64,000 bases of DNA from Eledone cirrhosa (taxonomy: Eukaryota), in the NCBI GenBank assembly GCA_964016885.1, contig OZ024741.1:151032001-151096000 (forward strand), read 5' to 3'. The translations under genes were made by a program, and so were the position numbers. Under the pieces are notes generated by a model. The model had not been told where the DNA came from. It saw only the letters and a program-made list of their open reading frames with translations, and made no database searches. Every line of letters begins with the position of its first letter. Within the stretch, counting starts at the first letter, position 1. This document shows, one piece after another, positions 487 to 63,451 of the stretch.

Positions 487-520
487 CTAGCAGAAAAACC
501 ACCCTTCAGGTGCATGTAGA
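487..520 (-). mobile_element. Helitron-like 3' terminus
   Basis: The minus strand reads a small hairpin followed by ...ttttctgCTAG, the same terminus as at 48195-48231. Confidence 0.5.
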
Positions 521-1139
521 TATGATACATCAAATGAAATCGTAATTGACAATATACACAGAAATTGAACGAAGTCTATGTTACACTGTCTTATGTAATC
601 ATTAAAGTAATCTATGATACATTTAAAAAAAGCCGATATTATATATAAACTGCATTAGGAGAAAATTAGCGACGGAAATATACGCGATATTTTTATAAGT
701 GTTGTAATATAACGGCCGCTAACCGAAAGTATTGACATTTGAAAATGTTAAAGAAGTGAATCTTTAAATAGGCTATAAAATATATTTAATCAACAGCCAC
801 GAAATTTAGCACATAAATTATGTAATATTCATTCATTATTTATTCAAAGTAATCCAACTCATTTTACAAACGGAGTAAAAATATATATTCTGGACGCAGT
901 CCCGCACTCCTTTCTTTATTATAGTTAAGATATACATATATGTGTGTGTATGTGTGTGTGTATGTGTGTGTATGTATATGTGTGTGTGTGTGTACGCATA
1001 TGTGTGTGTATATACATTTATATGTGTGTATGTGTATATACGTATGTATGTATGTGCGTAGAAAAGCAGGGCAACCCGGAGGAGAATATGAAAGCTAATG
1101 GACCTCTCTGTTAAATATAAATTCAGAAAAGTCCTATGC

Positions 1140-1810
1140 GATGATTGACAAAAGGGATGAGTTATGTACTTATCGCATTGAAGGCAATTGAAAGTTTCTA
1201 CGTGACAACTTACTACAGACTGTTGATGAGATTTGCAGCTGGAGCAAAGCACCATCCAAACTTAGGAGAACATGATAGTGGAGATAGGCATGGAAAAACT
1301 GGCAAAACGGGCGAGAGGCAGTAAAGATCAGTACTGGGTAGCTAAAAGAGATGCCAGACGACATGTGTTCTTAGCGCGTAAAGAAGCTGAAAGCATGTGG
1401 TTTGACAACACCTAGAGAGGATGTGAGACGTGAGGTGTTTTATATCTCAAAGTAGTGTGTCAGAGAAATTCAGGATGTTGTTGGGGAACAATATGGCCGA
1501 AATGACACCTTGCACTTAAAGTCACAAATGCTCACATGAAAGCGGTATGAAAATGCTTTTATAAAGGGTTGATGTATATGAAAAACGAGTGAGGGAATGA
1601 GAGACTAACCCCATCTGGCTCAACAAAGAGACCAACGATCGAAAGAGTGGCTAAGAAGAAGTCAAAGAGATGGAAAGTGGTAAAGTTTCTGGTCCACCAA
1701 ATGCTGAAACCAGGAGAAGTAGGACCGGAATTCATCACCCGCATAGTCAATCAACTAACATATGATTGGGTCGCCCCATGACTGGTGTAGCAGTACACTC
1801 ATTAATTGTT
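1140..1810 (+). pseudogene. Degenerate LINE (RTE-like) ORF2 fragment from the region between endonuclease and RT
   Basis: Broken frames give WKNWQ, KRDARRHVFLARKEAE, QDVVGEQ, MESGKVSGP, MLKPGEVG and DWCSSTLIN. Confidence 0.6.
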
Positions 1811-1987
1811 AACCCCAACACTTATTCACAAATATGTAGATGTAGATGTCTTTTTAATAACTTATAACAACAACAACAACAACAACAGCAATAACCTGAG
1901 CAGGAAAATCAAACAAACATAGAAAGTGACAAACATACGCTCATACACCTCTACACAAACACACACATATATAACCACACAAAAGCT

Positions 1988-2073
<86 letters not shown>

Positions 2074-2615
2074 ACAAACACACACGCAATCGCGACATAA
2101 GCACGGACACAAACACGCACAATCACTTCATGCATACGCACAGACACTTCAAATACGCACACAAACATATTCACACTTATTATCGTAGTAGATTAATATC
2201 TGCAACAGAATATATTTTGGTTTTATGACATTTGCAGATATGTTTCCATATAAAGTCATAATACTTGGTTTCCCAGCATATGCCGTTGACAGGAACATTT
2301 ACGTGAAGAATCAAATGTTAACTGACGTCATATAAATATTACAACGTTTCGTCTCTCCTGTCGACAATACTCAATTGATTTCATAGTTTCTATGTATTTA
2401 TTTTATTTTTCTATATATACTTACTATACTTCATATTTTTATGGATATACTTACTGTTGCTGTTTTTAATTTAATTTTTTTTTTTACTGTTTAGTCAGGA
2501 AAGAATGGATGGCACCTTTGACCATTTCCTGTGACACCAAGATTGGAAGAAAAGAGGAAAAACGTATTTTTGTATTGGAGGTCTATCTGCCTTGAAAGTT
2601 TACAATAGAATGGCA

Positions 2616-2895
2616 TCTGCCAAAGGTGGCAAAGGAGTGACAAGCGGTGTCAAACTGAACAACAGAGGTTACTTCACTAAAAAAACGCAATAGCCAGTTG
2701 GTGGCGGTGTTAAATTAGACAACAGAGTGTGTTCTGCCAAAAGTACCCAAGAACATGGTGGTGGCGTTAAACTGAACAACAGTATGGATTCTGCTAAATA
2801 CACCCAGGGCCAGGTGACAGTGTTAAACAGGGCAAAAGAGTGGGCTCTGTCAAAGATATCCAAGGATAGTGGAGTTAAACATGACAATAGAATAC
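2616..2895. repeat. Degenerate 53-60 bp tandem repeat, about 5 units
   Basis: The motif ggtgt(c/t)aaactgaacaacag recurs near 2649, 2709, 2766, 2821 and 2874. Confidence 0.7.
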
Positions 2896-3099
2896 CAGAT
2901 CAGCTTGCCACACACTCACGCATATACACACGCATAAGCACTGACTTTGAGCGTTAAAGTACTATTCTCCAAAATTATATATGTATATGTATATGTGTAT
3001 GTCTTTTTGTATGTATACATATATGCATATACGTACATATATTTATATAAGTAGGTAATATGTGTTGATATATATATATATAAATTTATATGTATTATG

Positions 3100-3163
<64 letters not shown>

Positions 3164-3548
3164 CATAAAATATCATACACACGTAGTTACATATGGACTT
3201 ACATTCAGAATAATGGCATCAACATTATTCATAAAAGAATTCCAAGAGAGCAGAATATTGTAGAATTAATTCAGCTGTTCCGTAGTTAGTGTTTCATGTA
3301 TTCTGATGTTCAATTCAATTGATTAATATGTCGTGCAAGAAATGAAGTTAAAGAAACTCTTTGATTTCTGGCTCATCACATTTCTACCTTCAACATAGCA
3401 AAGGTGGACAATATATAAAATAATATTTTAAGCGAATCAGTAATAGAAACATTGTACATATGCGTATCGATGCTTACATAAACACCAGATCAAATTTATA
3501 TATTCAAATTTTCATGCACGCATGCATGCCTGCATATATGTATGTTTA

Positions 3549-4170
3549 TGTCAGGTTTCGCTTAAGTGCTGCTGGTAACATGTAACCCAGTACAACCTGT
3601 CGCATGGTCGGGTCGTCGGCGACTAATCCGGCAACCCCACCAAGTTTACTTGGTGAGGAGGGTGATTTTGGACACACTGCAGGACAAAAATCAAAACCTG
3701 ACAAAGGGCAGAGGAACTCATAAGAGTAAACGGCCATCCAAAAATGTGTAAATATGTCTATGTATAAGTATGTATATGTATATATGTATATGCATGTGTG
3801 CATGTGTATGTATATGCGCGGGGACATAGTAATAGTCGGGCTGGGTACCCGAGCGCGCATTTAAACCACTGGGAGTGAAGGAGCCCTAGTCTTTGTCAGG
3901 GCATTCTTCTAGGAGAAGGCAACTCAGGAAACTGGGTTAACTCCAACATAAAACCTGCGGCTCAGTAGATACCGATGATCTTGAGCTCTTCTTCTTTTCG
4001 GGTTATAGCTACTGTCGCTCAGAGAGTGGGATTGGCTCAGTGCAAGTCTTTCCTCACTTTAAAAAAAATCTCCACGCACAGGCATTGCACGATAGCATTA
4101 ATTGATAATTATTAATAATGTTATAACGTGCAATGCCCATACTCGATAACGAAGGGGCAGCCATCATCAT
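3549..4170 (+). mobile_element. Non-autonomous RTE-derived retroelement in a (TATG)n context
   Basis: Has an RTE-type leader motif (ctaggagaagg..aactc). Its 3' end ..catactcgataacga.ggggcagccatc is shared with the RTE 3' end at 20630-20678. Near-identical copy at 40470-41085. Confidence 0.7.
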
Positions 4171-4641
4171 ATATGTATGTATTCATGGTGGCTATATTGA
4201 AAGAAGTCGTGTGTCAGACGCGTTTGAAAGGGTTGAAAAAACCCACCTTCATTTGCAAATGAAGGGCATATGAATTAACGTTTTCGAAGAGGAAAATTTA
4301 TGGAAAAATAGGTGAGAGCGGTGAGCATGTTCTTAGAGAAAGGGAGTATATATGTTCCTGCATGTATGTACATACGTACCTGTATTTATATAGGTTTGTA
4401 ATAAGTATATAATTCTCCGTCGATTTCAACGATAATTTTTCCAGTTGTTCGATCAGGGAAACAGCTTACACGTGTACCCATAACATAATGGACATTCCAC
4501 CAAATGGTTTCCACACAGTTTTCTTTTACTCAATTTCTTTCACAAAGCTTGGACAAGTGACACTTCCACAAGATACCACACAGGGGGATCGATCACAGAA
4601 TCTAATGATTGCAAAATGATCTTCTTAAACAGACCATGCTA

Positions 4642-5268
4642 CGGGGTGTGTCAGAAAAGAAATAGGACTCAGGTGACGCAAAAATGTATGTCCCGACACA
4701 CTTGCATGCGCCGCCCCTTTGGGTCATCGTTAAGCAGCTTTGGTACAATCTTCGCGCAGATCTTCAGCATATCCAAATCTTCGGTAATAATCTTCCAAAC
4801 ATTGTCGCGGTTCATGCCCAGCTCACTTGTGATCAATCGAAGAGTCAGCCGACGATCGCCACGCACCACATGCCTCACGCGCTCAAAGTTTGCCTCAGTC
4901 CAACTCATTGAAGGCCTTCCGCTCTTGGGGTCGTCTTCCACCTTTTATGCCTATCGAAAACCCGGGAGCGCGATATCGTCTCATCTCCGTACACTTGCTG
5001 CATTATTCCGAATGCTTCTGATGGAGGTTTCCCCGGCCGAATCAGAAACTTTATGCTGGTTTGTTTCTCTGTGCTCTGTGTTGAGCGGCATTCAACTGAG
5101 GAGCTCTTAACAAAACACGCGAAAAAACATACCGTGGCTGCATAGAGCTGAGATCGCAGTTATATACTCTCCGGATATTATGACACATGGTAACACAGTC
5201 CGCTAATACCTACCCCATTCATATCTCATACATCACACTAAGTCCTGCTACTTTTCTGACACGCCTGC
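4642..5268 (-). mobile_element. Internally deleted mariner (Tc1/mariner) element
   Basis: TIRs at 4642-4669 and 5241-5268 with flanking TA. Minus ORF 4669-4941 (EDDPKSGRPS, RLITSELGM, KIVPKLL) is a mariner HTH region. Confidence 0.9.
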
Positions 5269-6149
5269 TACGTCCATATGCATGTTTATCTTGAAAATAA
5301 TTACCATAGTTCCCATAATCACCTTAGGCGTGGAAGATGCTGTATTTTTACCCCCATAAGCCTAGAAAATTTACCCGTGTATCTTGGAGGTTAAAAGTTT
5401 CTTTTGTCAATTTATACTAACTTTACTTTTATAAATTTAGCAACTAACATTTTGGTGCCGCCACGACGGTGGAGCGTCTTCGATACCGGGAAATACTCTA
5501 TGTATTCTATTCATAAACAGTGTATACACTATTTGTGTATATACTCATTGAATATTCCACATTTGTTTATATAATATAAATTAAATACGAACTTACTTTC
5601 TATTTGTAAACATAATGCAATATGTAATTTCCAATAATCCTTTGATCAAAACCATTTAATATCAACCATAATAATACGCTACCCGTGTTTGTATATTTAA
5701 ATAGGCTTCTGACTGTAACTCTTTAAAATTGAAGCACACAAACATACATATATATATATACACGCAATTCATTTGCTATTCCAGTAATATACAAGAAGTT
5801 CGTTTTCGACACACGCGGCGCTGGATTCTAACCCTACATTTGCCCCTGTAAATATTTATTTATCCTAAGTTTCTCATGCATTTAATCCAGTATGCTGAAT
5901 AGTTATATAATTATGTCCTACAAATGAATGATTAAAATTGATTAAAATGTAATTCTTATCTTTAATCACTTCAAACATATCAGTAATCAACATACACTAT
6001 AGGATTTCTCTCATGAAAATCATTAATTTATCAAAAAGTAAATTTCCATAATTGTTCATATATTTGGTAATACTTGTATATATATGGCAATCGTGGACTC
6101 CCAAAATCAAATATGTTTAACTTTTCATTATAAATAAATTAATATAGAC

Positions 6150-6436
6150 TGAGGAGTGGGAAAAGTGAGAGAGGGCGCTTGCCCTGGTGGTCAGAGTGGC
6201 CGGGGCCTTTTTGTGTGGTTTTCGCCACGAGTTACCCTCGGAGGTTTCCCACTTTTTGGGGAATTTTTGTTGTTTGAATTTTTTTGATTTCTAGCCCAAT
6301 TTTGTTAGAACCTGTTTACACGACCAAAACAAACTTTGCATCGTCCTGTATTGCTCTGTGCCGTCTCTAATGTTTTTCTTCGTGTCAGCCCTTGTGCCCA
6401 ATAAAGAAATCGTTATAAATAAATAAAGAAAGAAAG

Positions 6437-6473
<37 letters not shown>
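6150..6473 (+). mobile_element. 3' UTR fragment of an L1/Tx1-type LINE with an (ATT)n tail
   Basis: Homologous to 8745-8970 (gagagggc..ttgccctggtggtcag ... aataaagaaa.. gcattattatt). Confidence 0.7.
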
Positions 6474-8970
6474 GGCGACCTACGTAGGAAGTCGTATCAC
6501 CGTGAGCTCCGCAAAGGTTTGTTGTTTTCGTTTGTTTAAAATTGCCATTTATGGAACATTTTTGTTGTTAACTGTTTCTAAATCACAAAATTTGCTTTCG
6601 GAAAAAGACACTCAATAAGATTGGGGCCTTGAGCCCAGAATTTCAACTTTTATAATTATCAAACAAAAAATTTCCTTGAAAAAATCATGGACGACTCACA
6701 GCTACACCAAACAGCTGAGAGCCTTCCTCACAAACTAACACCTCACACCAACACCACCATTTTAAATATTACTACGTTTGCCAACACTAAAAATATAAGC
6801 AGTAGCAATAATTTAAATTTGTCTCATGCAGATATTCATTTCCCGCCATTACCAATGACTGCAGGTGTCTAAGCCGCCACCATCACAGTGACAACAGAAA
6901 CAAAAGAAAAAACTAAATTATCTCGTGACATCGAAATGGATTCACCCAGAATGGACTCTTCCACACCGAACACCACTGACGCCACCACCACCACCACAAC
7001 TGAAACTAAAAATAACAATAACAAAAGTAACAATAACAACAACAGCAACAACAACAATGAGAATAACAACATCGTGTCATTTGCCAAGCAGCCAAAAAAT
7101 GCGAAACAATCCAGGTAACTCAGGAGGAATTAGATGAAGCCAAGAGAATGGTAAAGAAAGATGGGTACAGAGTCAGCTTCACCCCCCCACCAAATAAAAT
7201 GGATCATCAGCGCCTATGCACCATGTTTTGTCGGACGATTAACATAAAATCGCACCGAGTGGAACAGGCATCCGAGTCCCAAATCTAAAAGGTTTTGGGA
7301 CATGTGTGGGCCAAAAACCCCACATCAGACGTGGGCAGAAATATGGAACCGTGGACGTGTTCTTTGGAACACCCAGGAGGCCAGAGAGCACTCCATGGCC
7401 CCATTAAGAAGCGACGACTTCACACTCGTCCCAAGCTATTGTGGCCAGAGACTCGTAAAGATCAGGGTGACCCACGTTCCACCGGCCATCGAAATTCCCT
7501 GGCGAATGGCTGCCGTCCTCGCTGGCATTGAGGCCAACACCAGAATAATAGAAATAGCAAAAGAAAAGCAGGAGAACTGGTCCGGATCTGGGATGGAGCT
7601 CCTGATCCAAGCGGACCAAAAAAGCATTGAGGAGTTCCCAGAGGTAATAGACCTCACTGACGGCAGCCACATCACCGTAATCGTCGAGGGTAGAAGACCT
7701 AGGTGTGTCGTTTGTGGTGAAAGAACCCACCTACGGGCTTTCTACCCTCAGGCTAAAAAGTTGAGGCCACCTCTCTTACCCACCCCAGTGACTCAACCAT
7801 CCACACCACCAGCAGCAGAAATGGCAGCAACAACTGTAGCAGCAACAACAGAAGCAACTGTAGCAGCAACAACCCCAGCAACGGTAGCAAAACCAACACC
7901 ACCACCACCCAACGCGCCAGAAAGCACCAGCGCCTACACCATCCACCACGCCACAACCAAAACCAACCCCTGTGGAGGATTTTCCACTCCCCGGCCTATC
8001 ACAACTGGAGACAGATTGTGACGACGAGGAGTGGGAAACGGTATCAGGAAAAAAGAAAAAAAGAAAAAGAAGCCAAAAAAGAAAAAATCCTGTTCCTTCC
8101 CTCTCCAAAAACAAAATACAGAAGGAAACAAATAAACTATCAAACAAAAAAGTTAGGACAGCTATGCCACCATCCACACCAGCATCACCAACCCCATCAC
8201 CCCAAACACCAACACCATCACCATCATTAACCCCAACACCACCATCACCATCACCACAAAAGTCACCAAAAAGCGAAACAGAAACAAACCCACAACAAAC
8301 GCAAACAAAACAAAACAACCAAAACGATACACACTACACAGCATTACATTTGAACAACAACCAACTATTACACTACATCCAACACAAAACCAGCATCACA
8401 GAAAAAGACTACACAACACCCCAAAAGTTTACACCACCTCCACACATACAAATCACTCGCATCACACAGAAAACGTACACGACACTAAAACAAAAATTAC
8501 CCAAAGACATCGGAGACTTCCGACAAGCACTCTCCAAGAGGATTTATAAGGACATCCTTCCGGAGAAGGGCACAAGCAGTGAAAAGGATAGACAAACCAT
8601 CCTTCTACGAGAAGTAAGGTAAGTGTTCTTTCCCATCTTTTCCACTCCATTTCAACATGACCTCACTCAGAATAGGCAGCATAAATGCGCGTGGCTTGGG
8701 GTCGTCATGGAAGCAGGGCCACCTGCTCAAGGACCTCAGGAAAACTGGGAGAGGGCATTTGCCCTGGTGGTCAGGGTCACTGTGGCCTTTTAATGGGCTT
8801 TCTCCACAAATGTCCCTGGGGAATTTTTCATTGTTAATTTTTTGTTACACCCTCTGTTTTTGTTTTTACACGCAGAAATGCCCATTTTGTATCGTCCTGT
8901 ATTGTCCTGTACTGTCCTTAATGTCTACTTTATGTAAACCCTTGTGGTTAATAAAGAAAGCATTATTATT
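6474..8970 (+). mobile_element. L1/Tx1-clade LINE with frameshifted ORF1 and ORF2 deleted after about 29 codons
   Basis: ORF1 pieces 7302-8021 and 7972-8622 include a knuckle-like CVVCGERTHLRAF and WETVSGKKKK. ORF 8657 starts MTSLRIGSINARGL (APE endonuclease N-terminus), then joins the 3' UTR, AATAAA and (ATT)n. Confidence 0.8.
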
Positions 8971-8974
8971 TCAT

Positions 8975-9400
8975 GAGGTATCAGTAGACAGTCGGACACC
9001 ATGCTTTGCAGTATAGAGTTACGGCCCTTTACAGTCTGAGTTCAAATCCTGCCGAGGTTCACCTTGCCTTTCATCCTTACGGGGTCGATAAAATAAAGTA
9101 CCAGTCACGCACTGGAGTCAATTTAATCGCCTTTCCCCTCCGCCAAAATGGTTGGCTTTGTGCCTATATAAGAAACCATTATTTGATTGGCAGTATCGGT
9201 AGAGCGTCAGACACTATACTTTGCAGCATATAGTTCGAATTCCGCCGAGGTTAACTTTGCCTTTTATCCATATGGGATGGATAAAATAAAGTATCAGTCA
9301 ATAAAATAAAGTACTAGTAGGCACCGGCGTCGATTTAATCGACTTTCCACTCCCCTTCAAATTGCTGGCTTTGTACCTAAAGTAGAAACAATTATTATTT
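8975..9400 (+). mobile_element. Two tandem tRNA-derived SINEs with a Meta-like core
   Basis: B-box-like gagttcaaatcc/gttcgaattcc, core gcctttcatccttacggggtcgataaaataaagtaccagt, and short ATT tails. Confidence 0.85.
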
Positions 9401-9669
9401 CTTTCTCAATATGGTTTTTATTTCTTATTGCCGTCATTATTGACAACACGGGTTCAATAGCAGGTTACAAGCATCGTAGCCTATTATAAAGAACTTTTTA
9501 TATTTTGTTCCGTTTAGATGTAAATATAACCGTACGAATAAAATTGTGTTGTCGTAAAATTGTAATAGAGAAGATTCCTACATACTTATTTATGCAAGCA
9601 GGTTGGGTGTTGTACATTAAACGCACATATGTTGAAAAATAAGCTCAAACAAAGCTCAAATAACATTTA

Positions 9670-9800
9670 ATTGTTTCTACTTTTGGCACAAGGCCAGCCA
9701 TTACCCAGTACATTACTGGTACTTTATTTTATCGACCTCGTAAGGATGAAAGGCAAAGTTAACCTCGGCGGGATTTGAACTCAGATCGTAAAGGGACGTA
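9670..9800 (-). mobile_element. Meta-core SINE fragment
   Basis: Reverse complement of the core and B box seen at 8975-9400. Confidence 0.8.
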
Positions 9801-10221
9801 ACACATCACATCCATATACACACAGACACAGACACCCGCCTAAAGTGACACACAGACAGACTAGGACTAATCTACGTATGTTTCATAAATAAGTTAGAAC
9901 GACGTATCCTAAGTTAAAGGAAATAGGGAAACAATAAATTGTACATTTGGGATGTTATCTGAAAGTAATCTAAAAGGAGACAGATTCGGACATCCAATAG
10001 ATAAGACAGGACAATCTAGTCTGCCATTACTTACAAGAGAAGGTATGTGAAGAAATCTTGACAGAAAATCTCTGATTCAGATGAATTTCTTCTAACATTT
10101 GGAGAATGTTGCTCCCAGAAACGAAAAGAGGGAAAAACAACGGAATATAATTTTGTCTTTGTCGTTGTCTTGTCTTGTCTTGCAATCATTGTAAATATTG
10201 CAAATAAGAATAATAACGACA

Positions 10222-15653: not shown

Positions 15654-15656
<3 letters not shown>

Positions 15657-15794
15657 CAGTCCAGAATTAGCCGTCGAAACGGCTTGAGGTCAGCCGTCGG
15701 TGTCTTACTTGTTCCTATTACCCATTCTACTGCCATAAGTATTGAGTACTTTGGTGTGTTATGGTCCACCTGGTTCCTTACCACTTTTCCTTCG

Positions 15795-15796
<2 letters not shown>
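15654..15796 (+). mobile_element. Family A copy without a fold-back arm
   Basis: gtccagaattagccgtcGAAacggct..agccGTC through ..ccttcgt, between (TA)n tracts. Confidence 0.85.
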
Positions 15797-23846: not shown

Positions 23847-23891
23847 GCTCTGATGAGTCCTGCAATTATGCAAGGACGAAACACAGTCAGC
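23847..23891 (+). ncRNA. Type I minimal hammerhead ribozyme (cleanest example)
   Basis: gct-CTGATGA-gtcc-tgcaattatgca-aggac-GAA-ac-aca-GTC-agc. Intact core and a G10.1-C11.1 pair. It follows a pyrimidine-rich tract and precedes (TA)n, as in the PLE 3' end at 41195-43139. Confidence 0.9.
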
Positions 23892-24068
23892 AAATAAATA
23901 TTAATTGATGATGTAAGCGGTCTTTGTTTTTCTTCCATATAACGGCTCTGCTTTCAAGCATTGAGGTAATTAAATACTGTCATATATTCGACAGGACGCC
24001 TGTATCTTATACACACGTTCTGTTGTCTAAACATAATAATTATATATATATATATATATATAAACATT

Positions 24069-25130: not shown

Positions 25131-25333
25131 AACGAAGGAATTGTGGTAAGGAACCAGATGGACCATAATGCACCAAAGTACTCAATACTTAGGGTAGTAG
25201 AGTGGGTAATAGGAACAAGTATGACCCCGACAGCAGAGCTCAACCCGTTTCGACGGCTATTGCTGGACTCAAATAGTCCAGAAATAGCCGTCGAAACAGC
25301 TTGAGCTCTGCCGTCGGGGTCATACTTGTTCCT
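25131..25333 (-). mobile_element. Family A fold-back element
   Basis: Arms at about 25210-25269 and 25276-25333, (TA)n on both sides. Confidence 0.85.
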
Positions 25334-25560: not shown

Positions 25561-26617
25561 CATTTACTTTTGTGCGTGCGTGCATGTATGTGTGTTTGTA
25601 GGAGTTAATCAACTTATCTTTCTACCAACCAATCTATCTATAAGATATAAATAAGACAAGACCTATGTATTCTGTTTGTATGTGGTTGATATTCCATTGC
25701 TTGCCAGTTGCAAACATGAAAGGTTGAACCATTCTATACAGAGTTTACTTAATACATGCAATTGTAAGATAAATCAATGTATTCCAAGCACGGAATGCTT
25801 CAGAAGTGAAACCGCATTTAAATTACTATTAATTATTTATTTTATTTTATATCGTATTTAGAAACTATAAATATATCATAGATTTAATTACACTGTGTGA
25901 ATCTGGTTTAGAATAGGTACACTCTATCTATACATGTCGAATGAGGCGACTAAAATGTTTAGCATCAGAAAAACGTTGCCTAAACTCGGGCCTCATAATG
26001 ATTATCAATTCTATGATGGAGCTCACCTTAAAGCAACTATTGTTATTGATGTTATTGCTATATTGCTACTGGCATGGATTACAGGTCTTCAATGAGCCTA
26101 AAACGCCGATTCTTGGCATTGCTGGCGCGGCCGGAGTCATTATTGGTCCCTAACCTCTGATTCAGTCGTAAAGGCATCGTAATGACAGCTGAGCTTTATA
26201 GCATTTGGGTTCAGAGTGCAGAGAGCTGGGACGAAAACTAAAAAGAATTTAATTTGACGTTCTAATGACTTCGCTATATCATCGTTTGTATGTATGTACT
26301 TATATGAAGGGCGGAGGAACTCAGCCGAGTCAACAGCCATCCAAATAGTCATTTTTTCCACCTGGAGGTGAAAGGCCCCCAGTTGTTGTCACAACACCTT
26401 TCTAAGAAAGGGAAACTCTGAAAAAAAGATCTGCGGCTTTGGAAGCATCCGATGATGTTGACAAGTTCTTTTCGGGTAGTGTTTTCGATGCTCAGAGAGT
26501 GGGATTGGTCAAGTGCAAGACCTTTCCCCACTTAAAAAACCTTCAAAGCACAGGCGATTGCAATACTCTTGGCAGAGTTTGCAGCCATCATATATATATA
26601 TATATATATATATTAAA

Positions 26618-27299
26618 AATGTAAGTTATCGCCGTATTTTGACTAAAGAAATTGTTTAGCCTGATAGTGGGGTTAAGAACCCTCGGAGAAATGGAAAAAT
26701 ATGAGTATTGACGTACATGGGAGTCGAACCCACATCTTTGGTTATCCGGACCACTGTGCTACCAATTACACCAACACATTACCCGTCTTTTTCCATTCAA
26801 ATTAGAAGCTATAAACTTAGCGACTGTAATGTCAAGTAAGAATATTTTCAAAACAGCGAGTTGGTTTGAAATTATTAGAAATGTAAGCTATCGCCGTATT
26901 TTGACTAAAGAAATTAAAGAAATTATTTAGCCTGATAGTGGGGTTAAGAACCCTCGGAGAAATGGAAAAAGATGAGTATTGACGTACATGGGAGGCGAAC
27001 CCACATCTTTGGTTATCCGGACCACTGACATTACAGTCGCTAAGTTTATAGCTTCTAATTTGAATGGAAAAAGACGGGTGATGTGTTGGTGTAAATGGTA
27101 GCACAGTGGTCCGGATAACCAAAGATATGGGTTCGACTCCCATGTACGTCAATACTCATCTTTTTCCATTTCTCCGAGGGTTCTTAACCCCACTATCAGG
27201 CTAAATAATTTCTTTAATTTCTTTAGTCAAAATACGGCGATAGCTTACATTTCTAATAATTTCAAACCAACTTGCTGTTTCGAAAATATTCTTACTTGA
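26618..27299. mobile_element. About 274-bp unit: two tandem minus copies plus one inverted plus copy, between (TA)n tracts
   Basis: 27026-27299 is the reverse complement of 26618-26832 and of 26832-27025. Confidence 0.9.
27080..27151 (+). tRNA. tRNA-like cloverleaf (pseudo-tRNA with a non-canonical anticodon loop)
   Basis: Acceptor GATGTGT/GTACGTC, D arm GTGT/GCAC, TGGT-CCGGATA-ACCA, T arm ATGGG-TTCGACT-CCCAT, and a T5 run at 27161. Minus copies at 26709-26780 and 26981-27025. Confidence 0.6.
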
Positions 27300-32880: not shown

Positions 32881-32885
<5 letters not shown>

Positions 32886-33916
32886 TAATTTAATATATCT
32901 ACTAACATAAGCGCACAGATGTACGCTAATGCCAGCAAATACACCGGTTATGTCATAGTACCTAGGTGGTTCAATGCAGGAGGATGCAGAACAATAATAT
33001 AAAAGACGTAAAATAAGAAAATTTAAAAAAAAAAATAAAAAGAAAATTAACTTACTTACTTAAATTTTCACTCCAACTAATTAGTTTCTGCAATGGGATA
33101 AAGACAGTTACGTAATGAACTGTTGAGAATTTCATTGCGTCATCAGGGAGATCATTCTCAGCCAAGTCTCCAGGCAATGCGCGGACACTGGGAACTCATA
33201 TAAAAATAATAATAATTCGGAAGTGGTTTTGGCAGGTTTGCTCGACAAATCAGTGATTTGGAGATAAATATAGATAATTTAATATATCTACTAACATAAG
33301 CGCACAGATGTACGCTAATGCCAGCAAATACACAGGTTATGTCATAGTACCTAGGTGGTTCAATGCAGGAGGATGCAGAACAATAATATAAAAGACGTAA
33401 AATAAGAAAATTAGTACTATGACATAACCTGTGTATTTGCTGGCATTAGCGTACATCTGTGCGCTTATGTTAGTAGATATATTAAATTATCTATATTTAT
33501 CTCCAAATCACTGATTTGTCGAGCAAACCTGCCAAAACCACTTCTAAATTTTTTGCGGGTGTTAGTAGGCGTCTGTCATCTTACCATCCCATTCCTACTA
33601 ACTAGCCTCTGTGTCACGTGATTGATTCTTTAGAATCGGCCATATGACCAGTGGCAGTGAGAATTTTCAGTACCTGGAATCCAGTCCTCGATAGCTGTTC
33701 CATTTACCGAATTATTATTATTTTTATATGAGTCCCCAGTGTCCGCGCATTGCCTGGAGACTTGGCTGAGAATAATCTCCCTGATGACGCAATGAAATTC
33801 TCAACGGTTCATTACGTAACTGTCTTTATCCCATTGCAGAAACTAATTAGTTGGAGTGAAAATTTAAGTAAGTTAATTTAAAAAAATTTTTTTTAAAAAA
33901 ATGTTCTTAATTTACG

Positions 33917-33922
<6 letters not shown>
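32881..33922. mobile_element. Family B tandem-plus-inverted array with hammerheads at 33071-33150 (-) and 33777-33856 (+)
   Basis: Direct repeat 32882/33271 with a period of about 389 bp, inversion near 33414, (TA)n flanks. Confidence 0.85.
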
Positions 33923-34238: not shown

Positions 34239-34479
34239 GCTATTTCAGAGCAACAATTCTAATATATATATATATATATATCAGATAGGGTGTGGTAAAA
34301 ACCAGGTAGACCATAACCCACCAGAGTACTCGATACTTGGGGTAGTAGAGTGGGTAATATGATAAGTTTCAGGACCCTGACGGCTGAGATGCGGAGGTTT
34401 CGACAGCTAGATCCGAACTCCGATATATATATACGAATTAGTACTTAATACCGAAGTCGAATTTATATATTCTTTGTTA

Positions 34480-36930
34480 TGGCTAAGTGGGGAAGTTTGT
34501 TACTTTGGAGCTTCATAACATAACCATAATGAATATATATAACAAAGGTGAGAAGGAGAAAAGGAGAGAATCCTCAAAAAACGGTTACTATTCAAACGCT
34601 AAATCAATTATGCAAAACTATTGAGACGGCAATGCTACAAAAGCCAGAACAAATCTTAAAACCAGTAAAAATAGATCTAGGATGACAAATCCATTAAGTG
34701 AAAAACACCCTGAGCCATATATGGACTCAAAATCTTACAGCCCGGGAATTAGCCTTTTGGTATTTTGTAAAAAATAGCAGCAAAGCAGAAATATATGAAA
34801 GATGGATCAATTCCACTCCAAACACCCCCGTCAAAAATTTCAAATAAAGCCTATCCAGAATTAACCTGAAAATAATCAAAACTTTCATGAAAAGTTGGCT
34901 TTAGAAAAATACAAAATGGCAATAGAATTATTACGGCAAATGGAAGTAGAAATTTGAGATGATTCCGAAGGCTAAATTTATGAAAACACCAAAATCTCTC
35001 AAAGGGATTAAAATTCACCCCCAACACCATACTACTCAACCTCAATGAGATATAGGACACTATTTCACACTTCTGTATAAAGATACGCCTAACAGAAGAA
35101 GTTTTAGACAAGGAAACAATGACAAGTCAATTGTACGGAATAAAAGCAATTACAAACCTACAAAAGATAGGAACAAAGTTTGTGACGACATATCAACTTT
35201 CCGATACAGTGAACTACCACATCCTAAACCCAAATCCAACATCAGCCAAAACGAATGGGAAACTATCCAAGAATTGAAGAACATTCACTAGGTCATAATT
35301 AAGGAAGCGAATAAGGGAAATATTGTCGTCGTTATGGATATTGGACGCAATATAAATTCTATATCTTCTCTCCTACAAGACATTGCCTATTATGAAAAGA
35401 CAAACAATTACCAGCAATCAAATACGATGACAAGACTAAACAAAATCGTTTAAAACACTAATCACCAGCTAATATGAAGGTCTAGTTGGATAGATGAAGG
35501 TCTAGTTGGATAAATGAAGGTGTGAATTATATCTGGTCTTAAAGCTATTCGATGTAGAGCCTATATATACTTTCGAGATGTGATTGGCGGTTACAGTACC
35601 GGAGTAGACAATGTCTTTAATTCGGCAGTTCTTATTTAATGGACATGTCTGTGGTGTTTCTTAGGGTTATTGCTGTGGTGTGATTTAACTTTTTGTACAG
35701 GAGTCTACGAGAATACATTTAATCGTAACTCCCAATACTATAATGAAGCATTAGCCCGTTCCGGCCATAGAGATAAAATTAAATTTAAACCTAAATCGTC
35801 AACCACCCATAGACAACCTAATATAATTTCACACAACATGGCCATGAATAAAAGTAAATAAATCACCCCACAGCAATAACCCTAAGAAACACCACAGAAA
35901 GAAAAATATAGATATGAATGAACCTAACACCACACTAAACAGTAGTATGAATAACAACCATAGGAAGAATAGAAGAAGTAGCACATATTTTAACCCTCCG
36001 TTCAACGTAAATGTATCAACAAACATATCTAAAGCTTTCTTCTCTACTCTAGACAAAAACTTCCCAACTAACCATAAATACCACAACCTATTTAACAAAA
36101 ACACAATTAAAATATCCTACTCCACCACACCTAACATAGCAGACCATATAGCCAGCACCAACAAGGGAAATATTGAAAAGTACTTCAAACTACACCAAAG
36201 TAATAATGTCCAGCATAGAAATAACCCGAACAACAACATAGTACAAAATCATACAACAAGTCATACTAATAATACAAATATTAATAACACTCACCATAAT
36301 TATAACACTAGAAGTAGAAAGAGAAACAACCACTCAAATGCACACCACCTTAACCAATATAGTAGTAAACAAAACAATTGTAACTGTAGGGCTAAAATGA
36401 CGTCCATTAAATAAGAACTGCCTAATTAAAGACATTGTCTACTCCGGTATTGTAACCGCCAATCACAACTCGAAAGTATATATAGGCTCTACATCGAATA
36501 GCTTTAAGACCAGATATAATGCACACCTTCATTCGTCCAGAAACCCTAAACTTAGAAACGTAACCTCAATATCCACATACATACACTCATTAAAATCAAG
36601 TAATATACCATACACCTTAAAATGGGAAGTGATAGCTAAGGCATCTTCATATAAACCACCTAACACATTTTGTAACCTTTGCATCCTCGAGTTTAAAAAT
36701 ATTATTCACTCTAACCTTAGCCTACTAAATAGGAAATCAGAGATCTTCTACACGTGTCCGCATTACCATAGATTCTCGTTCCACTACTTCAAACCTAGCA
36801 ACTAATAATAATAAAAATAAAAATAAAGACTAATGTCGGAGATAACACTAGACCACCACATTGTAACTTATACCAACTAGACCTTCATTTATCCAACTAG
36901 ACCTTCATCTATCCAACTAGACCTTCATGA
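34480..36930 (+). pseudogene. Penelope-like element, RT core replaced, GIY-YIG endonuclease region retained
   Basis: LSKGLKFTP, IIKEANKGNIVVVMD, YFNPPF..NTIKISYS, CNCR, DIVYSGIVT..VYIGST, CNLC..LLNRKSEIFYTCPH. Confidence 0.9.
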
Positions 36931-38490: not shown

Positions 38491-38494
<4 letters not shown>

Positions 38495-38866
38495 GGTTTG
38501 AGGTTCACCACTGGATAGAGCTGGTCAATTCCGTATGGTCAATCTTAATGTAATAATATGGGGAGTACTCAACGTAAAGCAATTCAACCATCTTTGTTTT
38601 TGTAGTTGGTGGTGCTAGTACGGAGTTAAATATTATAATGAAATGACAGGAGGCTGGACTTGTGTAAATCCTTGAAAGGCTTATTATACTATGATCATTT
38701 CAATGATTTTCAGCCCCATGGATTTTATCTATTACATTCACTTATTATATTTCGAATACCTGATGATATCACCGGATTCATACGGAACCCGGTCATCGAA
38801 ATGATCATAGTATAATAAACCTTTCAAGGATTTACACAAGTCCAGCCTCCTGTCATTTCATTATTA
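38491..38866. mobile_element. Family F fold-back element with hammerhead at 38756-38813 (duplicated at 39257-39314)
   Basis: atac-CTGATGA-tat.accgg..ccggt.atc-GAA-atgatcAT-A-gtat. Same sequence as the arms of 61151-63451. Confidence 0.8.
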
Positions 38867-38883
38867 TATATATATATATATAT

Positions 38884-39059
38884 AACGAAGGAAATGTGGT
38901 AAGGAACCAGGTGGACCATAACGCACCAAAGTACTCAATACTTAGGGTAGTAGAGTGGGTAATAGGAAAAAGTAAGACCCCGACGGCTGAGCTCAAGCCG
39001 TTTCGACGGCTAATTCCATCGAAACGGCTTGAGCTCAGCCGTCGGGGTCTTACTTTTTC

Positions 39060-39061
<2 letters not shown>
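38884..39061 (-). mobile_element. Family A fold-back element
   Basis: Arms at about 38962-39006 and 39019-39061, (TA)n flanks. Confidence 0.85.
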
Positions 39062-39091
<30 letters not shown>

Positions 39092-39529
39092 TATTTTCCG
39101 TTGTGTTGTAATATAAATATTATAAGTTAAATATTATAATGAAATGACAGGAGGCTGGACTTGTGTAAATCCTTGAAAGGCTTATTATACTATGATCATT
39201 TCAATGATTTTCAGCCCCATGGATTTTATCTATTACATTCACTTATTATATTTCGAATACCTGATGATATCACCGGATTCATACGGAACCCGGTCATCGA
39301 AATGATCATAGTATAATAAACCTTTCAAGGATTTACACAAGTCCAGCCTCCTGTCATTTCATTATTATATATATATATATATATAACGAAGGAAATGTGG
39401 TAAGTATGTGTATATATAAACGTCCATAAGTATGTGTATATATATGTGAAAATGTATATAAATAAGTAAATATATATATATGTTTGATGTGTATAGTTAG
39501 ATGTAAGTGTATTCATGTATTAAAGTGCT

Positions 39530-41085: not shown

Positions 41086-41120
<35 letters not shown>

Positions 41121-41194
41121 TATTGAAATTTCCGTTGGAAACAGAAAAGGTCATAGAAATGAAGAGTGCTCTATGTAAGTATCAGAGCAAAATT

Positions 41195-42256
41195 TAATGT
41201 ATAAAAATCAATACAATATAATTACCTCATTACCAGAGGTTTCATAGATACTATAAGATCTTTAACAGAAACTGTGTTAAAATTAGCTATTCCTGCGGTC
41301 CCCCTATTAAGTCCTATATCCTCAACAAAATATCACCTAGAGAAAATCAAACTTGCTCCTGTAGAATCAAAAGTGAATGCCCATTACAAGGTAAATGCAA
41401 CACCAAAGCCATTGTATATGCGGCTAAAGTGACAACCATCAGCAACAACCAATCAGCCACCAGTGAACGATATGTGGGTATGACGCAAGACAGATTCAAA
41501 ACGCGTTATTACTCACAATACGCATCTTTCGACATCCAGAAAAAAGATTTACAACAGCTCTGGCTAGCAGAATTTGGGATTTGAAAGACCAAGGCATCCA
41601 ATGTAAACTAGATTGGTCAATTTTGAACCAATCTAAAAAATATGCTAGAGGAACAAGAAAATGAACGCTCTGCATAAATGAAAAATGTTGGATATTGCAA
41701 AATCTAAAATCACCAAAGACCTGCCTGAACACAAAGACGGAAATTTTCACCAGTTGCCCACACATGAAATCACACCTGCTTTCCAGCTCATATAAACTTA
41801 ACACACTTTCAGATACTTATCCTCCATAAACTCTTATTATTCTCTTTTTAATTACCCTTTCTGACTTACTTTCATTTTTATCCTTGTCAATAATTTCATT
41901 TATTTTTATTTTTATTTTTATTTTTACTTCACATCCACCCCCCCTTTATTCTCCGATTCACTTTCCATTTTTTACTTCCCCTTCTTTTACTTCCCTTTTT
42001 CCTCCACTAACTGATTACACTTGTCTTTTGTGTTTTTCAATCCAGATATATTTTTCATTTTCATTTTTATTTTTATTTTTATTTTATTTTTGCGCAGCCT
42101 ATCTTACAATTTTATATTTGTACTTATTTATCCACAAGTTTTTTACACCCTGTATCAATATGGCTGAACGCCTTAATGTGTGTATACTTTTATATATGTA
42201 AATGAGTGACTACGTATGTGCGCGCGCGTGCGTGTATGTATATATATATATATATA

Positions 42257-42289
<33 letters not shown>

Positions 42290-43135
42290 ATGTATATATT
42301 ATGCGTATGTGTATGTCTCTTTATATCCGTGTTTTTGACATCTCGGTTTTATGTTTTGTTCCTTTCTTCTTCTCCCCCCCCCCCTTTCCTTTTTTTACTT
42401 ACTCAGTTTTATGCGTGTGCATGCAAACAGGTTTATATGCGTGAGTATAAGTATGTGCGTGTATGTGTGTGTATGTACGTATCGAACGTATGGATGTGTA
42501 AGTGCGCGTGTGTATATAAGCATCTATATTTTTACATTTCTTTTGTGAGACATGCGTGTCTGTGTATGTATGTACCCTTTTTTTGTCTTCTTTTCTTCAA
42601 TTTTTTCTTTCTAAAAATATTTTTTCTTTCTAATTTATCGTTATTATATTTTTATAAATATATCGAGACTGATACTTTTCTTTTAATTATTACACTCCCT
42701 TACCTCCTTTACTTCCGCATCTAAGTGTAAGAGTGTGCAGGCGTTTTATGCGCGCGCCTTCATATTCATATATTTATGATGTAACTATTCTGTTTGTAGA
42801 TTACAGACATATAGATACATTTGCCCTAAATTTTAGAATTACGCACACTTTCTCACTATACGTATACATGTGTGCATATACATATATGCACATCTGTGAG
42901 CGTATATACATAAATATACACACACCTAACTATATTTTTTGATAGATTTTTATATATTTCAATTTCTATTTCATTTGTCTATATCTTTTTTTGATTTTCT
43001 TGATGAGTTTTTCTGGGTATTTACCCATGTCTTATATTGCCTCGTCTGACGAACGAATGAAGTCGTTTATTTCGTATTCGCCTCATTCGGGAAACCTCTG
43101 GTAATGAGGTAATTATATTGTATTGATTTTTATAC

Positions 43136-43139
<4 letters not shown>
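41195..43139 (+). mobile_element. 5'-truncated Penelope-like element with an inverted terminal segment, GIY-YIG remnant (41243-41829) and hammerhead (43037-43112)
   Basis: KIFNRNCVKISYSC..CSCRIKSECPLQGKC..IVYAAKV..RYVGMT..CPH. 41195-41243 is the reverse complement of 43091-43139. HHR reads ttgcctcgt-CTGACGA-a-cgaatga..tcattcg-g-GAA-acc-tct-gGTA-atgaggtaa. Confidence 0.9.
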
Positions 43140-49719: not shown

Positions 49720-49802
49720 ACACCTGATGACGAGCCCTGGGATGTTATGATTCTGACACTGTTTATGGCGAAACATTCTCTTCTTTGAGTCTGTCCAGGT
49801 GT
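49720..49802 (+). ncRNA. Hammerhead (C3A variant) between about 80-bp direct repeats at 49440 and 49962
   Basis: acacctg-ATGACGA-gcc...ggc-GAA-aca..tGTC-caggtgt. Confidence 0.65.
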
Positions 49803-51444: not shown

Positions 51445-54260
51445 AAGTGCTTAATAAAAGATTCAGACGAAACCAAACATCAAAAGTGCTTAATAAAAGA
51501 TTCAGACGAAACCAAACATCGAAAGTGCTTAATAAAAGATTCAGACGAAACCAAACATCAGTCTATAGAGATATGAATGGCAAAATAATAAGTGTCACTG
51601 AGGCTCCATTCCAGAAAGACATAGATTCTTTTGGAGAAAATTATGGGGTGAAAAGAAGAATTTCAACCAAGGTGCAGTGTGGCTAAGAGAAATCCGAAAG
51701 AACTATTGCTCCTACACTACAACAAAAACATACGAAATAAGTGAGGGTACCCTTGAGACTGTGATAGGAAAACTCCAACATAAGAAAACACCAGGAAGAG
51801 ACATTATTGTCGGCTACTGGTACAAAAAACTAATATTCTATCGGAGACCTCTACCAACAAGTTCTTAAGGGATATATACTTATACCAGAATGGTTGTCAT
51901 TAGCACAAACGTTACTGGTCCCCAAGAACAAAGACACCCACTTGGCAAAAAACTACCGACCCATTGCATGCCAGAACCTGATGTATAAGATGTATACAGC
52001 CTACCTCAACCTATTCCTCCAAGATCGCTGTGAAAATAATAACATCAACACAGATGAACAAGCAGCTGGAAAGAAAGGGGTTTGGGGATGTGCTGAGCAA
52101 CTCCTAATCAACAAAACTGCGATGTAGGAGGTGCGACAACTTAGGTGGAATATGACTACAGTCTGGCTGGACTACAAGAAAGCTTTTGATTCTGTTCCCC
52201 ACTCTTGGGTGATAGAGGCCTTCCAACTTGCTAAAGTCCCAGACATTATTGTCATAGTCATAGAGAGGCTGTCTTATTCTTGGGCTACTATCCTAAGGTT
52301 AAAGACAGAGAGTGAGGACTCTATTTTCACTGATAAAATAAAATATTGCAGGGGTATATTTCAGGGGGACAGACTCTCTGTGATATTATTCATCTTGTCA
52401 TTAAACCCCTTGTCCTTTCTGCTCAAGAAATGTGAGGGATACATCATTGGCTCTCGGGAGGACAGAAATACGAACCTAACCCATAACTTCTTTGTGGACG
52501 ATCTGAAACTCTATGCCAAGAACATGGATGGGATGAAGAAAAATCTTGACCTGGTTACAACGTTCTCAAAGGATATAGGAATGGAGTTTGGCCAAGATAT
52601 GCTCATACATGACTGTAAAGCGGGGAAAAACAACAACCCAATCTAGCAACATTGTCATCAATGGCCTAACTGTCTCACGGATATCTGATGAGGACTGCTA
52701 CAGATACCTGGGGATAGATGAGAACATATCCTATAATGGTATCTGTAATAAAGAACGCGTAACCAGGGAATACTACACCCGATTAAGAAAGATCTGGTCA
52801 TCGGAACTCTCTGCGCAAAACAAAACAGTGGCTCACAATGTGTTCACTGTGCCTGTCCTAGCACCAACGTTTGGAATACTCAATTGAACGATAGACGAAA
52901 TCCGAGCCGTTGATGTTGGAAGACGAAAAATACTGAACAACACCGGAAACTTCCACATCAACAGTGACATAGACCGCCTTTACTTGAAACGTAAGCAGGG
53001 AGGTAGAGGCCTAACATCAGTCCAGACAACATTTGAATGTCGCATCATATCTCTCCGACAACATCTACGAACCTCGAAGCATAGGAGCCCGTTTCTCGAG
53101 CAAGTCTATCTGCATGAAACAGATAAGATCATGAGAGTTGGGAAGGAACTCCTTGAGAGATATTCCCTGTGTGATAATCAAAAACTCACACCCAGAGATG
53201 TCGCTCAGCAGTATTGCAGTGAATCCATGGATGAAAAATTGCATGCCTATCAGCAAAATATCATGCATGGATATGTTGCCAGGAAGCTCCAGAGTGAGAG
53301 TAATATAGATAAGGAAAGTAGTCTATCTTTGACCAACAACCGCTATATTGGCTCCCACTTTGAAGGATACGCTTTTGCAATCCAGGAACAGGAGATTAGC
53401 ACGAAATACCTGATTCACAAAAGAGATAGGGATGCAGGCAAAACACCTAGATGTGATAACAAGTGCAGACTCTGCAGAACTAACATCGGGGATATGACCC
53501 ATGTCATCAGCAGCTGTCCAAAGATGTCATCGCGGTACTATCTACCTATGAGGCATGATGTAGTGGCCAAAACACTGTACAAAAGATAGCCCCGATAATA
53601 AACACATTAAAAGCTACAACAATGTGGAAGACATCAATGTACATAATATGAAAGAGTACTGGTGAAATGTTCCAGTAAAAACCCCAATAAAATGCAGGCA
53701 TAACAGACCAGATATTATGATATGGGACAGGGAGAAGAAAACATGCGCAAAAGTGGAAATTAGCTGCCCAGCAGATGCCAATATAATATCAAAAATTAGT
53801 GAAAAGGAGAATATTTATGCAGAACTGATGAGAAATCTGCAGATACTCCACCCTGATTACACCTTCAGATTAATGCCTGTGATTATTGGGACATGTTAGT
53901 AACTGCCTCAATACAAATCTTGAGAAGCTAGGCTTCACAGGAACAGAAAGAACACAACTAGTTAGGAAATTACAAGTACAATCCATTAATGGAACATTAA
54001 AAATATGTAAAACATTCCAAACATTTTGCATCTAATAACTGCATATACACATGTACAGATACCAAGCATATACACATGCACACATACAACTCAAAACTTA
54101 CACATTCACACATACAATAACATCCATATCTACACATGCATGCATACATAAATATCTACCTAGTTGTTGTGTAAATTCCAATGAGAGAGTCTTGTGTCTA
54201 TGTTAGAAACCGACTCTCTCTCTATTGGTAAAACTTTGTGAAATTATAAAACCAGAAGAA
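51445..54260 (+). pseudogene. 5'-truncated R4/Dong-type non-LTR retrotransposon (RT plus restriction-like endonuclease)
   Basis: NYRPIAC, WLDYKKAFDSVPH, GIFQGD, FVDDLKLY, YRYLG, GGRGL, CRLC..HVISSC, RHDVVA, RPDI. Few stops or frameshifts, flanked by (CATA)n. Confidence 0.9.
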
Positions 54261-54277
54261 CATACATACATACATAC

Positions 54278-54335
<58 letters not shown>

Positions 54336-54345
<10 letters not shown>

Positions 54346-54593
54346 CGTAAAATAAGAAAATTATAAAATTAACTTACTAAAAAATCAATTCCATTTGAAT
54401 GTCGCATCATATCTCTCCGACAACATCTACGAACCTCGAAGTAAGTTAATTTTATAATTTTCTTATTTTACGTCTCTCATATTATTGTTCTGCAACCCCA
54501 TGCATTGAACCACATTGTTAATAAGACAAAACCTATATATTTGCTAGCATTGATATGCATCTGTGTGTATATAAATGTTACTAGATATAAATT

Positions 54594-54595
<2 letters not shown>
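54336..54595 (+). mobile_element. Family B-related hairpin fragment
   Basis: Arms 54336-54378 and 54440-54482. The tail matches 27660-27820. Confidence 0.8.
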
Positions 54596-54655
<60 letters not shown>

Positions 54656-54658
<3 letters not shown>

Positions 54659-54868
54659 AACCAGTAAGACCCCGACAGCTGAGCTCAAGCCGTTTCGACG
54701 GCTAATTCTGGACTAATTATTCTAATAATATCCAGAATTAGCCGTCGAAACGGCTTGAGCTCAGCTGTCGGGGTCTTACTGGTTCCTATTACCCACTCTA
54801 CTACCTCAAGTATTGAGTACTTTGGTGCGTTATGGTCCACCTGGTTCCTTACCACATTTCCTTCGTTA
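54656..54868 (+). mobile_element. Family A fold-back element
   Basis: Arms at about 54656-54712 and 54731-54788, (TA)n flanks. Confidence 0.85.

Positions 54869-60358: not shown

Positions 60359-63451
<3,093 letters not shown>

Follow-up and report, generated by a model that had tools for sequence, protein, structure and literature searches.

Positions 54336-54482 of the window (by which we mean the whole 64,000-nt stretch of Eledone cirrhosa DNA analyzed) hold two inverted arms of one repeat, here called family B, with a stretch identical to part of a neighboring LINE between them. This arrangement raises the question of how foreign DNA comes to lie at the center of an inverted structure. 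An earlier note on the same DNA had read the locus as a hairpin whose loop was filled by a local template switch. Here, we report the layout of the locus, the probable source of its center, and how both compare with other elements of the window and with published insertion scars.

The 50-nt filler at 54392-54441 is identical to 53030-53079 (50/50 nt, same strand, 1362 nt apart; no extension possible on either side), which bears out the earlier note's claim of identity with a LINE about 1.36 kb upstream. The chance expectation for such a 50-nt match in the window is ~1e-25. Of ten public sequence runs that share words with this stretch, four, which may be neither from this species nor from this individual, were aligned to 54341-54594. 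The AAG at 54439-54441 is common to the LINE tract and family B, and B contigs in three of these runs align from 54439 onwards, as expected of the microhomology claimed for the right junction. At the left junction, CA is shared with the LINE tract, provided that the spacer at 54379-54391 is family B. The filler does lie between inverted B arms, as claimed; the loop content was described incompletely, since 13 nt of non-LINE sequence (54379-54391) had been missed. The inter-arm space is thus 61 nt, made up of these 13 nt and 48 nt of the 50-mer, whose last 2 nt double as right-arm sequence. Coordinates of all parts are collected in Table 1.

Table 1. Parts of the locus and of its neighboring LINE (positions in the window)
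Feature	Position	Strand	Remark
Non-LTR element, dead, 5'-truncated	51565..54260	+	RT, then motifs presumed to be CCHC knuckle and restriction-like endonuclease; both ends approximate
Donor tract of the 50-mer	53030..53079	+	Inside LINE ORF, codons T-F-E-C-R-I-I-S-L-R-Q-H-L-R-T-S-K
(CATA)n then (TA)n microsatellite	54261..54339	.	At LINE 3' end; left side of insertion target
Short family B copy, inverted	54336..54378	-	43/43 complementary; 3' end at internal site
Spacer, 13 nt	54379..54391	-	Likely further 5' continuation of short B copy; then CA
Filler	54392..54441	+	Identical to LINE tract; right-end AAG common to family B
Long family B copy, 5'-truncated	54440..54596	+	157 nt; 54440-54482 pairs with short copy
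Extra 3' part ("tail") of long B copy	54483..54596	+	114 nt
(TA)n	54597..54656	.	Right side of insertion target

The arms (54336-54378 and 54440-54482) are complementary at 43/43 nt (fold z = -15.8) and AT-rich, and 54340-54596 is flanked by (TA)n runs on both sides. The structure fits two 5'-truncated family B copies that overlap head to head in (TA)n better than it fits a free hairpin. The long copy is identical at 125/151 and 126/150 positions (83-84%) to two further B copies, at 27.7 and 32.9 kb, and belongs to a minority type, most records of the public runs differing from it at 54515, 54516, and 54521. The short copy ends 114 nt inside the end of the long one. Its internal 3' end recurs at 33913-33921 and in 16 contigs of run X3, in each case entering (TA)n, and is therefore a trait of family B.

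Together with the next two letters, which bring the short copy to ~58 nt, the spacer aligns to the 5' continuation of all three other B copies in the window. Equal scores in this anchored alignment were reached by 0.7-3.3% of 12000 random window sites (p 0.007-0.03), a modest likeness from which the 13 nt are likely to be further family B sequence. If they are, the short copy extends ~15 nt further 5' than the long copy, so it would not be a fold-back copy of it. Searching the rest of the window with up to 2 mismatches gave no other source for the spacer, and an exact search of metagenome contigs for arm plus spacer gave 0 matches, which says little about an animal repeat. Extended, imperfect homology of the spacer to the LINE sequence immediately preceding the donor tract, which would have fixed the direction of copying, was rejected, because 17-34% of nearby windows scored equally.

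Family B likely behaves as a non-autonomous end of a Penelope-like element. Its inverted, 5'-truncated copy adjoins the 5' end at 54336-54596 and at 32884-33921, with 4 further joints in X3; it has two fixed 3' ends, 114 nt apart (the published tail is 30-40 bp); it forms a pLTR-like partial tandem at 32884-33413 (one 389-nt unit, then a partial second); and all three B loci of the window end in (TA)n. It also carries a hammerhead-like motif (CTGATGA plus stem), non-canonical in having GTAA in place of GAAA. Rfam gave no hammerhead in family B at the gathering score or among the best 150 of 176 rows at E 10; at the gathering score, the only matches were two tRNA-like ones, with nothing at the 54336-54596 locus. 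No ORF, and hence none of the telomerase-like RT and GIY-YIG endonuclease kind that marks Penelope-like elements, adjoins any family B copy in the 64-kb window. With no linked ORF, a non-canonical motif, and a tail longer than 30-40 bp, we treat family B as a probable and not an established member of the Penelope group. The locus at 32884-33921 is itself complex, combining long and short ends, the partial tandem, and an inner 131-nt perfect inverted repeat. Within it, a 162-nt segment (33545-33706) is present in one B arm only, and its edges are one base off those of a minus-strand GT-AG intron.

In published descriptions of Penelope-like elements, 5'-truncated copies in inverted orientation, a tail on one side only, and insertion into (TA)n recur (PMC8557442, PMC3846280). 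A hammerhead ribozyme in the pLTR is a further feature of the group, absent in Naiads. Our locus resembles Penelope, Neptune, and Naiad (PMC8557442, PMC3846280, PMC11167929) in its head-to-head inverted truncated copy with a one-sided extra 3' part, its (TA)n target, the lack of a clear target duplication, and partial tandems. Unlike these, family B has no linked ORF in the window, its extra part measures 114 nt against 30-40 nt, and the center is foreign DNA matching a neighbor instead of a palindrome.

Other loci of the window repeat this head-to-head arrangement in (TA)n, pairing a short 3' end with a long one: 4/6 aligned copies of a second repeat (family A), one locus of a third (family D, 38492-38864), and the family B locus at 32884-33921. 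At the family D locus, the short arm extends 92 nt further 5' than the long arm. The family A arms are nearly nested: the short arm reaches further 5' in one of four (by 2 nt), the two are equal in one, and the long arm reaches further in two, which is also what a fold-back would give. Two GIY-YIG-coding elements have an inverted end as well (35474-36928, with a Pfam GIY-YIG match, and 41119-43137). The second of these lies between (TA)n runs and bears a 47-nt inverted copy of its own 3' end at 41197-41243, preceded by 78 nt that match nothing in the window. The family A copies (65-280, 15655-15795, 25132-25332, 34282-34422, 38885-39060, and 54657-54866) nearly all end at one 5' point, keeping only the 3' half of a hammerhead-like core, and have fixed short and long 3' ends ~77 nt apart. 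The family D locus at 38492-38864 has, at 38760, a hammerhead-like core of minimal form whose loop is palindromic. Close by, 39125-39365 is a 241-nt exact duplicate of 38624-38864. The identity carries on through (TA)n to the opening 19 nt of a family A copy, which suggests a recent local duplication with 36 nt of filler.

With moderate confidence, we propose that the adjacent LINE served as template for the filler during the joining of two Penelope-type cDNA ends, each primed on its own. A Penelope-like protein acting in trans would have cut both strands within the (TA)n, and each 3' end would have primed reverse transcription on family B RNA, forming two cDNAs, one begun at the distal site (157 nt made) and the other at the internal site (~58 nt made). 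One cDNA end may then have paired over 2-3 nt with the LINE lying 1.36 kb upstream, copied 50 nt from its DNA or from a nascent transcript of the locus, and been released; the extended end would have paired, again over 2-3 nt, with that of the other cDNA, and the gap would have been filled. In the simplest direction, the long cDNA would pair at AAG with the LINE sense strand and finish at CA, copied by either the element's RT or a host end-joining polymerase. The filler's orientation is compatible with a DNA or a sense RNA template. Two separate cDNAs, and not one, are suggested by the spacer, which is B-like and adjoins the short arm, and by the 92 nt by which the family D short arm outreaches its partner. 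Foreign DNA between the arms and longer-reaching short arms fit such separately primed cDNAs better, in agreement with in vitro work from 2024, in which a purified Penelope-like protein cut both strands of its target, extended both, and began copying at two positions on the RNA (PMC11167929); this would yield two head-to-head cDNAs.

It is unlikely that a single cDNA snapped back, in which case a long B cDNA would have switched at AAG onto the local LINE, acquired 13 nt from some other source, and later folded back, so that 43 nt were copied and joined to (TA)n. The arms, identical at 43/43 nt even in letters absent from most family copies, fit such folding, as do the nearly nested family A arms; junctions of this kind form a published R2 class (PMC11331408), and self-priming has been proposed for Penelope palindromes (PMC3846280). 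Against it, the spacer resembles antisense B beside the short arm, which is impossible in a copy of the long arm, and the family D short arm exceeds the long arm.

Later repair of a finished B hairpin, in which the fragile palindrome center broke and end joining patched it with 50 nt from the nearby LINE, also seems improbable to us. In its favor are the 13-15 nt missing from the long arm but apparently retained in the short one, microhomology at the junctions, and AT-rich, perfect 43-nt arms. Polymerase theta-mediated end joining likewise leaves short copied tracts bounded by 2-3 nt microhomologies; its templates are usually no more than tens of bases from the break. Against it, the arms (43 nt) and the filler (50 nt) together hold no difference from their sources at 93 positions (95% bound ~3%), which would place insertion and repair close in time, and such filler is already known at retroelement junctions. 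For the reading that we prefer, the age contrast with the LINE, which has 2 differences from the family majority in 110 nt and at least five disablements, is a point in favor. Judged from these letters, a local donor would make the filler the younger of the two; the earlier note had dated the hairpin as well, and that extension holds only if filler and insertion are coeval.

The donor LINE (Pfam RVT_1, E 2.5e-14) has as its best named match a protein from Octopus bimaculoides (61% identical; the one named octopus hit among 90 proteins) and is disabled by at least two in-frame stops (52885 and 53663) and three frame changes within 52128-54026. Its translations contain RT followed by CRLC..H....C and RPD..EISCP motifs, which we take to be a CCHC knuckle and a restriction-like endonuclease, and the element is putatively R4/Dong-like. 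It ends at ~54260 in (CATA)n/(TA)n, with the B element directly after. At its truncated 5' end, three 39-nt tandem copies occupy 51445-51561.

That the donor was local, by whichever route, we consider very probable. The local template switch of the earlier note fits, microhomology included; the word "local" rests on proximity, as filler and LINE share no private change. Under an assumed 500-10000 LINE copies in a genome that we take to be 2.7 Gb, a copy would lie within 1.4 kb of a random site in 0.05-1% of cases, an illustrative figure given that the copy number is assumed. LINE and family B both favor microsatellites, which raises the chance of proximity, though probably not to parity, and so weakens this sum.

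Comparison with paralogues, which the earlier note had proposed, does not single out the local copy, because the 50-mer, matched by the local LINE at 50/50 nt, is equally the commonest form of the LINE family in the public runs. In runs X1 and X2, one contig apiece equals the 50-mer throughout, yet carries family-type flanks. The main variants within the 50-mer in run X8 fall at 54414 (1914/4355 reads), 54399 (429/3793), 54404 (446/4296), and 54431 (224/4041), and even the most variable site has the same letter in 56% of reads. The local LINE departs from the family majority at 53004 and 53081, both outside the donor tract, the latter two letters past it. At this ~2% divergence, a 50-nt tract would have no private change 40% of the time, so the comparison is not negative for a local donor. 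Protein homologues were rejected as a source of the LINE's private changes, the best being only 61% identical and too distant. Derivation of the whole loop from a different R4-like subfamily was rejected as well, since such X1 records diverge after 54428.

The same commonness of the 50-mer would suit a donor elsewhere in this LINE family, whether a different genomic copy or mRNA from an active member, the neighbor match being coincidence; this we hold to be very unlikely. The orientation of the 50-mer suits an RT jump to sense RNA. Octopus vulgaris has 1129 young Dong-R4 insertions, a sign of recent activity of these families (PMC13282606), and in one L1 study, insertions built from two RNAs (9) outnumber those with sequence templated from nearby genomic DNA (3) (PMC11702581). 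Such a donor would require capture of this one family at a site with one of its copies within 1.4 kb, the small chance given above for assumed copy numbers.

Among the records listed for the four runs, no read or contig bridges either 50-mer junction, and the source individual may differ; the filler junctions are confirmed in the assembly only and are unverified by reads. In the LINE records listed, loose ends run into further LINE sequence; in the B records listed, those at 54439 run into B, which supports AAG as shared. The earlier note had asked whether this loop recurs in family B copies at unrelated loci; four X3 contigs join both B arms across other centers (short sides 21-26 nt where given), so B hairpins occur elsewhere without it. 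An assembly or library artefact, from a chimeric molecule or a mis-join, could account for the missing bridges and for the best of the ten runs containing 0.59 of 27 sampled words, but is scarcely credible given B hairpins with other centers in 4 independent contigs, outer ends both at family-wide sites, and words wholly in B or LINE over about three quarters of the stretch, so that an insertion-free individual would give a partial share.

As a single event, the locus is an insertion scar of a kind already known from L1 and R2, and we propose no function for it. As in non-canonical L1 insertions (PMC11702581, PMC10191854), opposite cDNAs, short microhomology, and extra sequence templated near the site would occur together, and for L1 locally transcribed pre-mRNA has been found co-inserted (PMC10191854). 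Unlike ordinary twin priming, the pieces here overlap by 43 nt of one element, and unlike the L1 cases, the insertion is germline-fixed, in an invertebrate, and of a non-L1 element. As in the R2 5' junction classes termed "snap-back" and "extra template" (PMC11331408), a cDNA 3' end would have grown by copying either a DNA strand close by or another RNA; unlike R2 snap-back, which yields the reverse complement of cDNA or adjacent rDNA, the filler is in direct orientation and probably comes from 1.36 kb away.

The locus is of value chiefly for what it suggests about the origin of Penelope inverted ends. Craig (2021; PMC8557442) describes the origin of Penelope tandem and inverted structures as undefined, and Arkhipova (2013; PMC3846280) proposes self-priming and describes host DNA captured beside pLTRs and template jumps. 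Nearby-DNA filler at a Penelope inverted junction was not found in the available portions of the literature searched, which covered few subscription papers; nor are such centers described in the accessible text of PMC13282606 or bioRxiv 10.64898/2026.07.22.740005. We advance tentatively, as a possibility, that Penelope inverted ends in general arise by two-ended reverse transcription, in which separate cDNAs would be made from both cut (TA)n strands at two fixed RNA sites and end-joined, sometimes with filler from nearby DNA. If this two-ended model were true, the many centers in cephalopod genomes would form a natural record able to settle how the inverted structures form.

Other centers of the window were surveyed, as the earlier note had suggested, for matches to nearby DNA. 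Among 14 centers or fillers, nearby foreign DNA was matched in one, namely 54392-54441, so such capture is uncommon. Of the other 13, two gave long matches (40 and 35 nt) within their own element family, and the remaining 11 matched over 10-16 nt, near the length in shuffled controls (8-14 nt).

Several further structures were seen in the window. At 23850-23895 there is a canonical-looking hammerhead core, not reported by Rfam at the gathering score, and another candidate lies at 49724. Between (TA)n runs, 26614-27298 forms a nested inverted structure with two tRNA-like segments (26709-26780 and 27080-27151). Family D also occurs as an inverted repeat at 61153-63449, with arms of ~930 nt at 96% identity around a 436-nt center.
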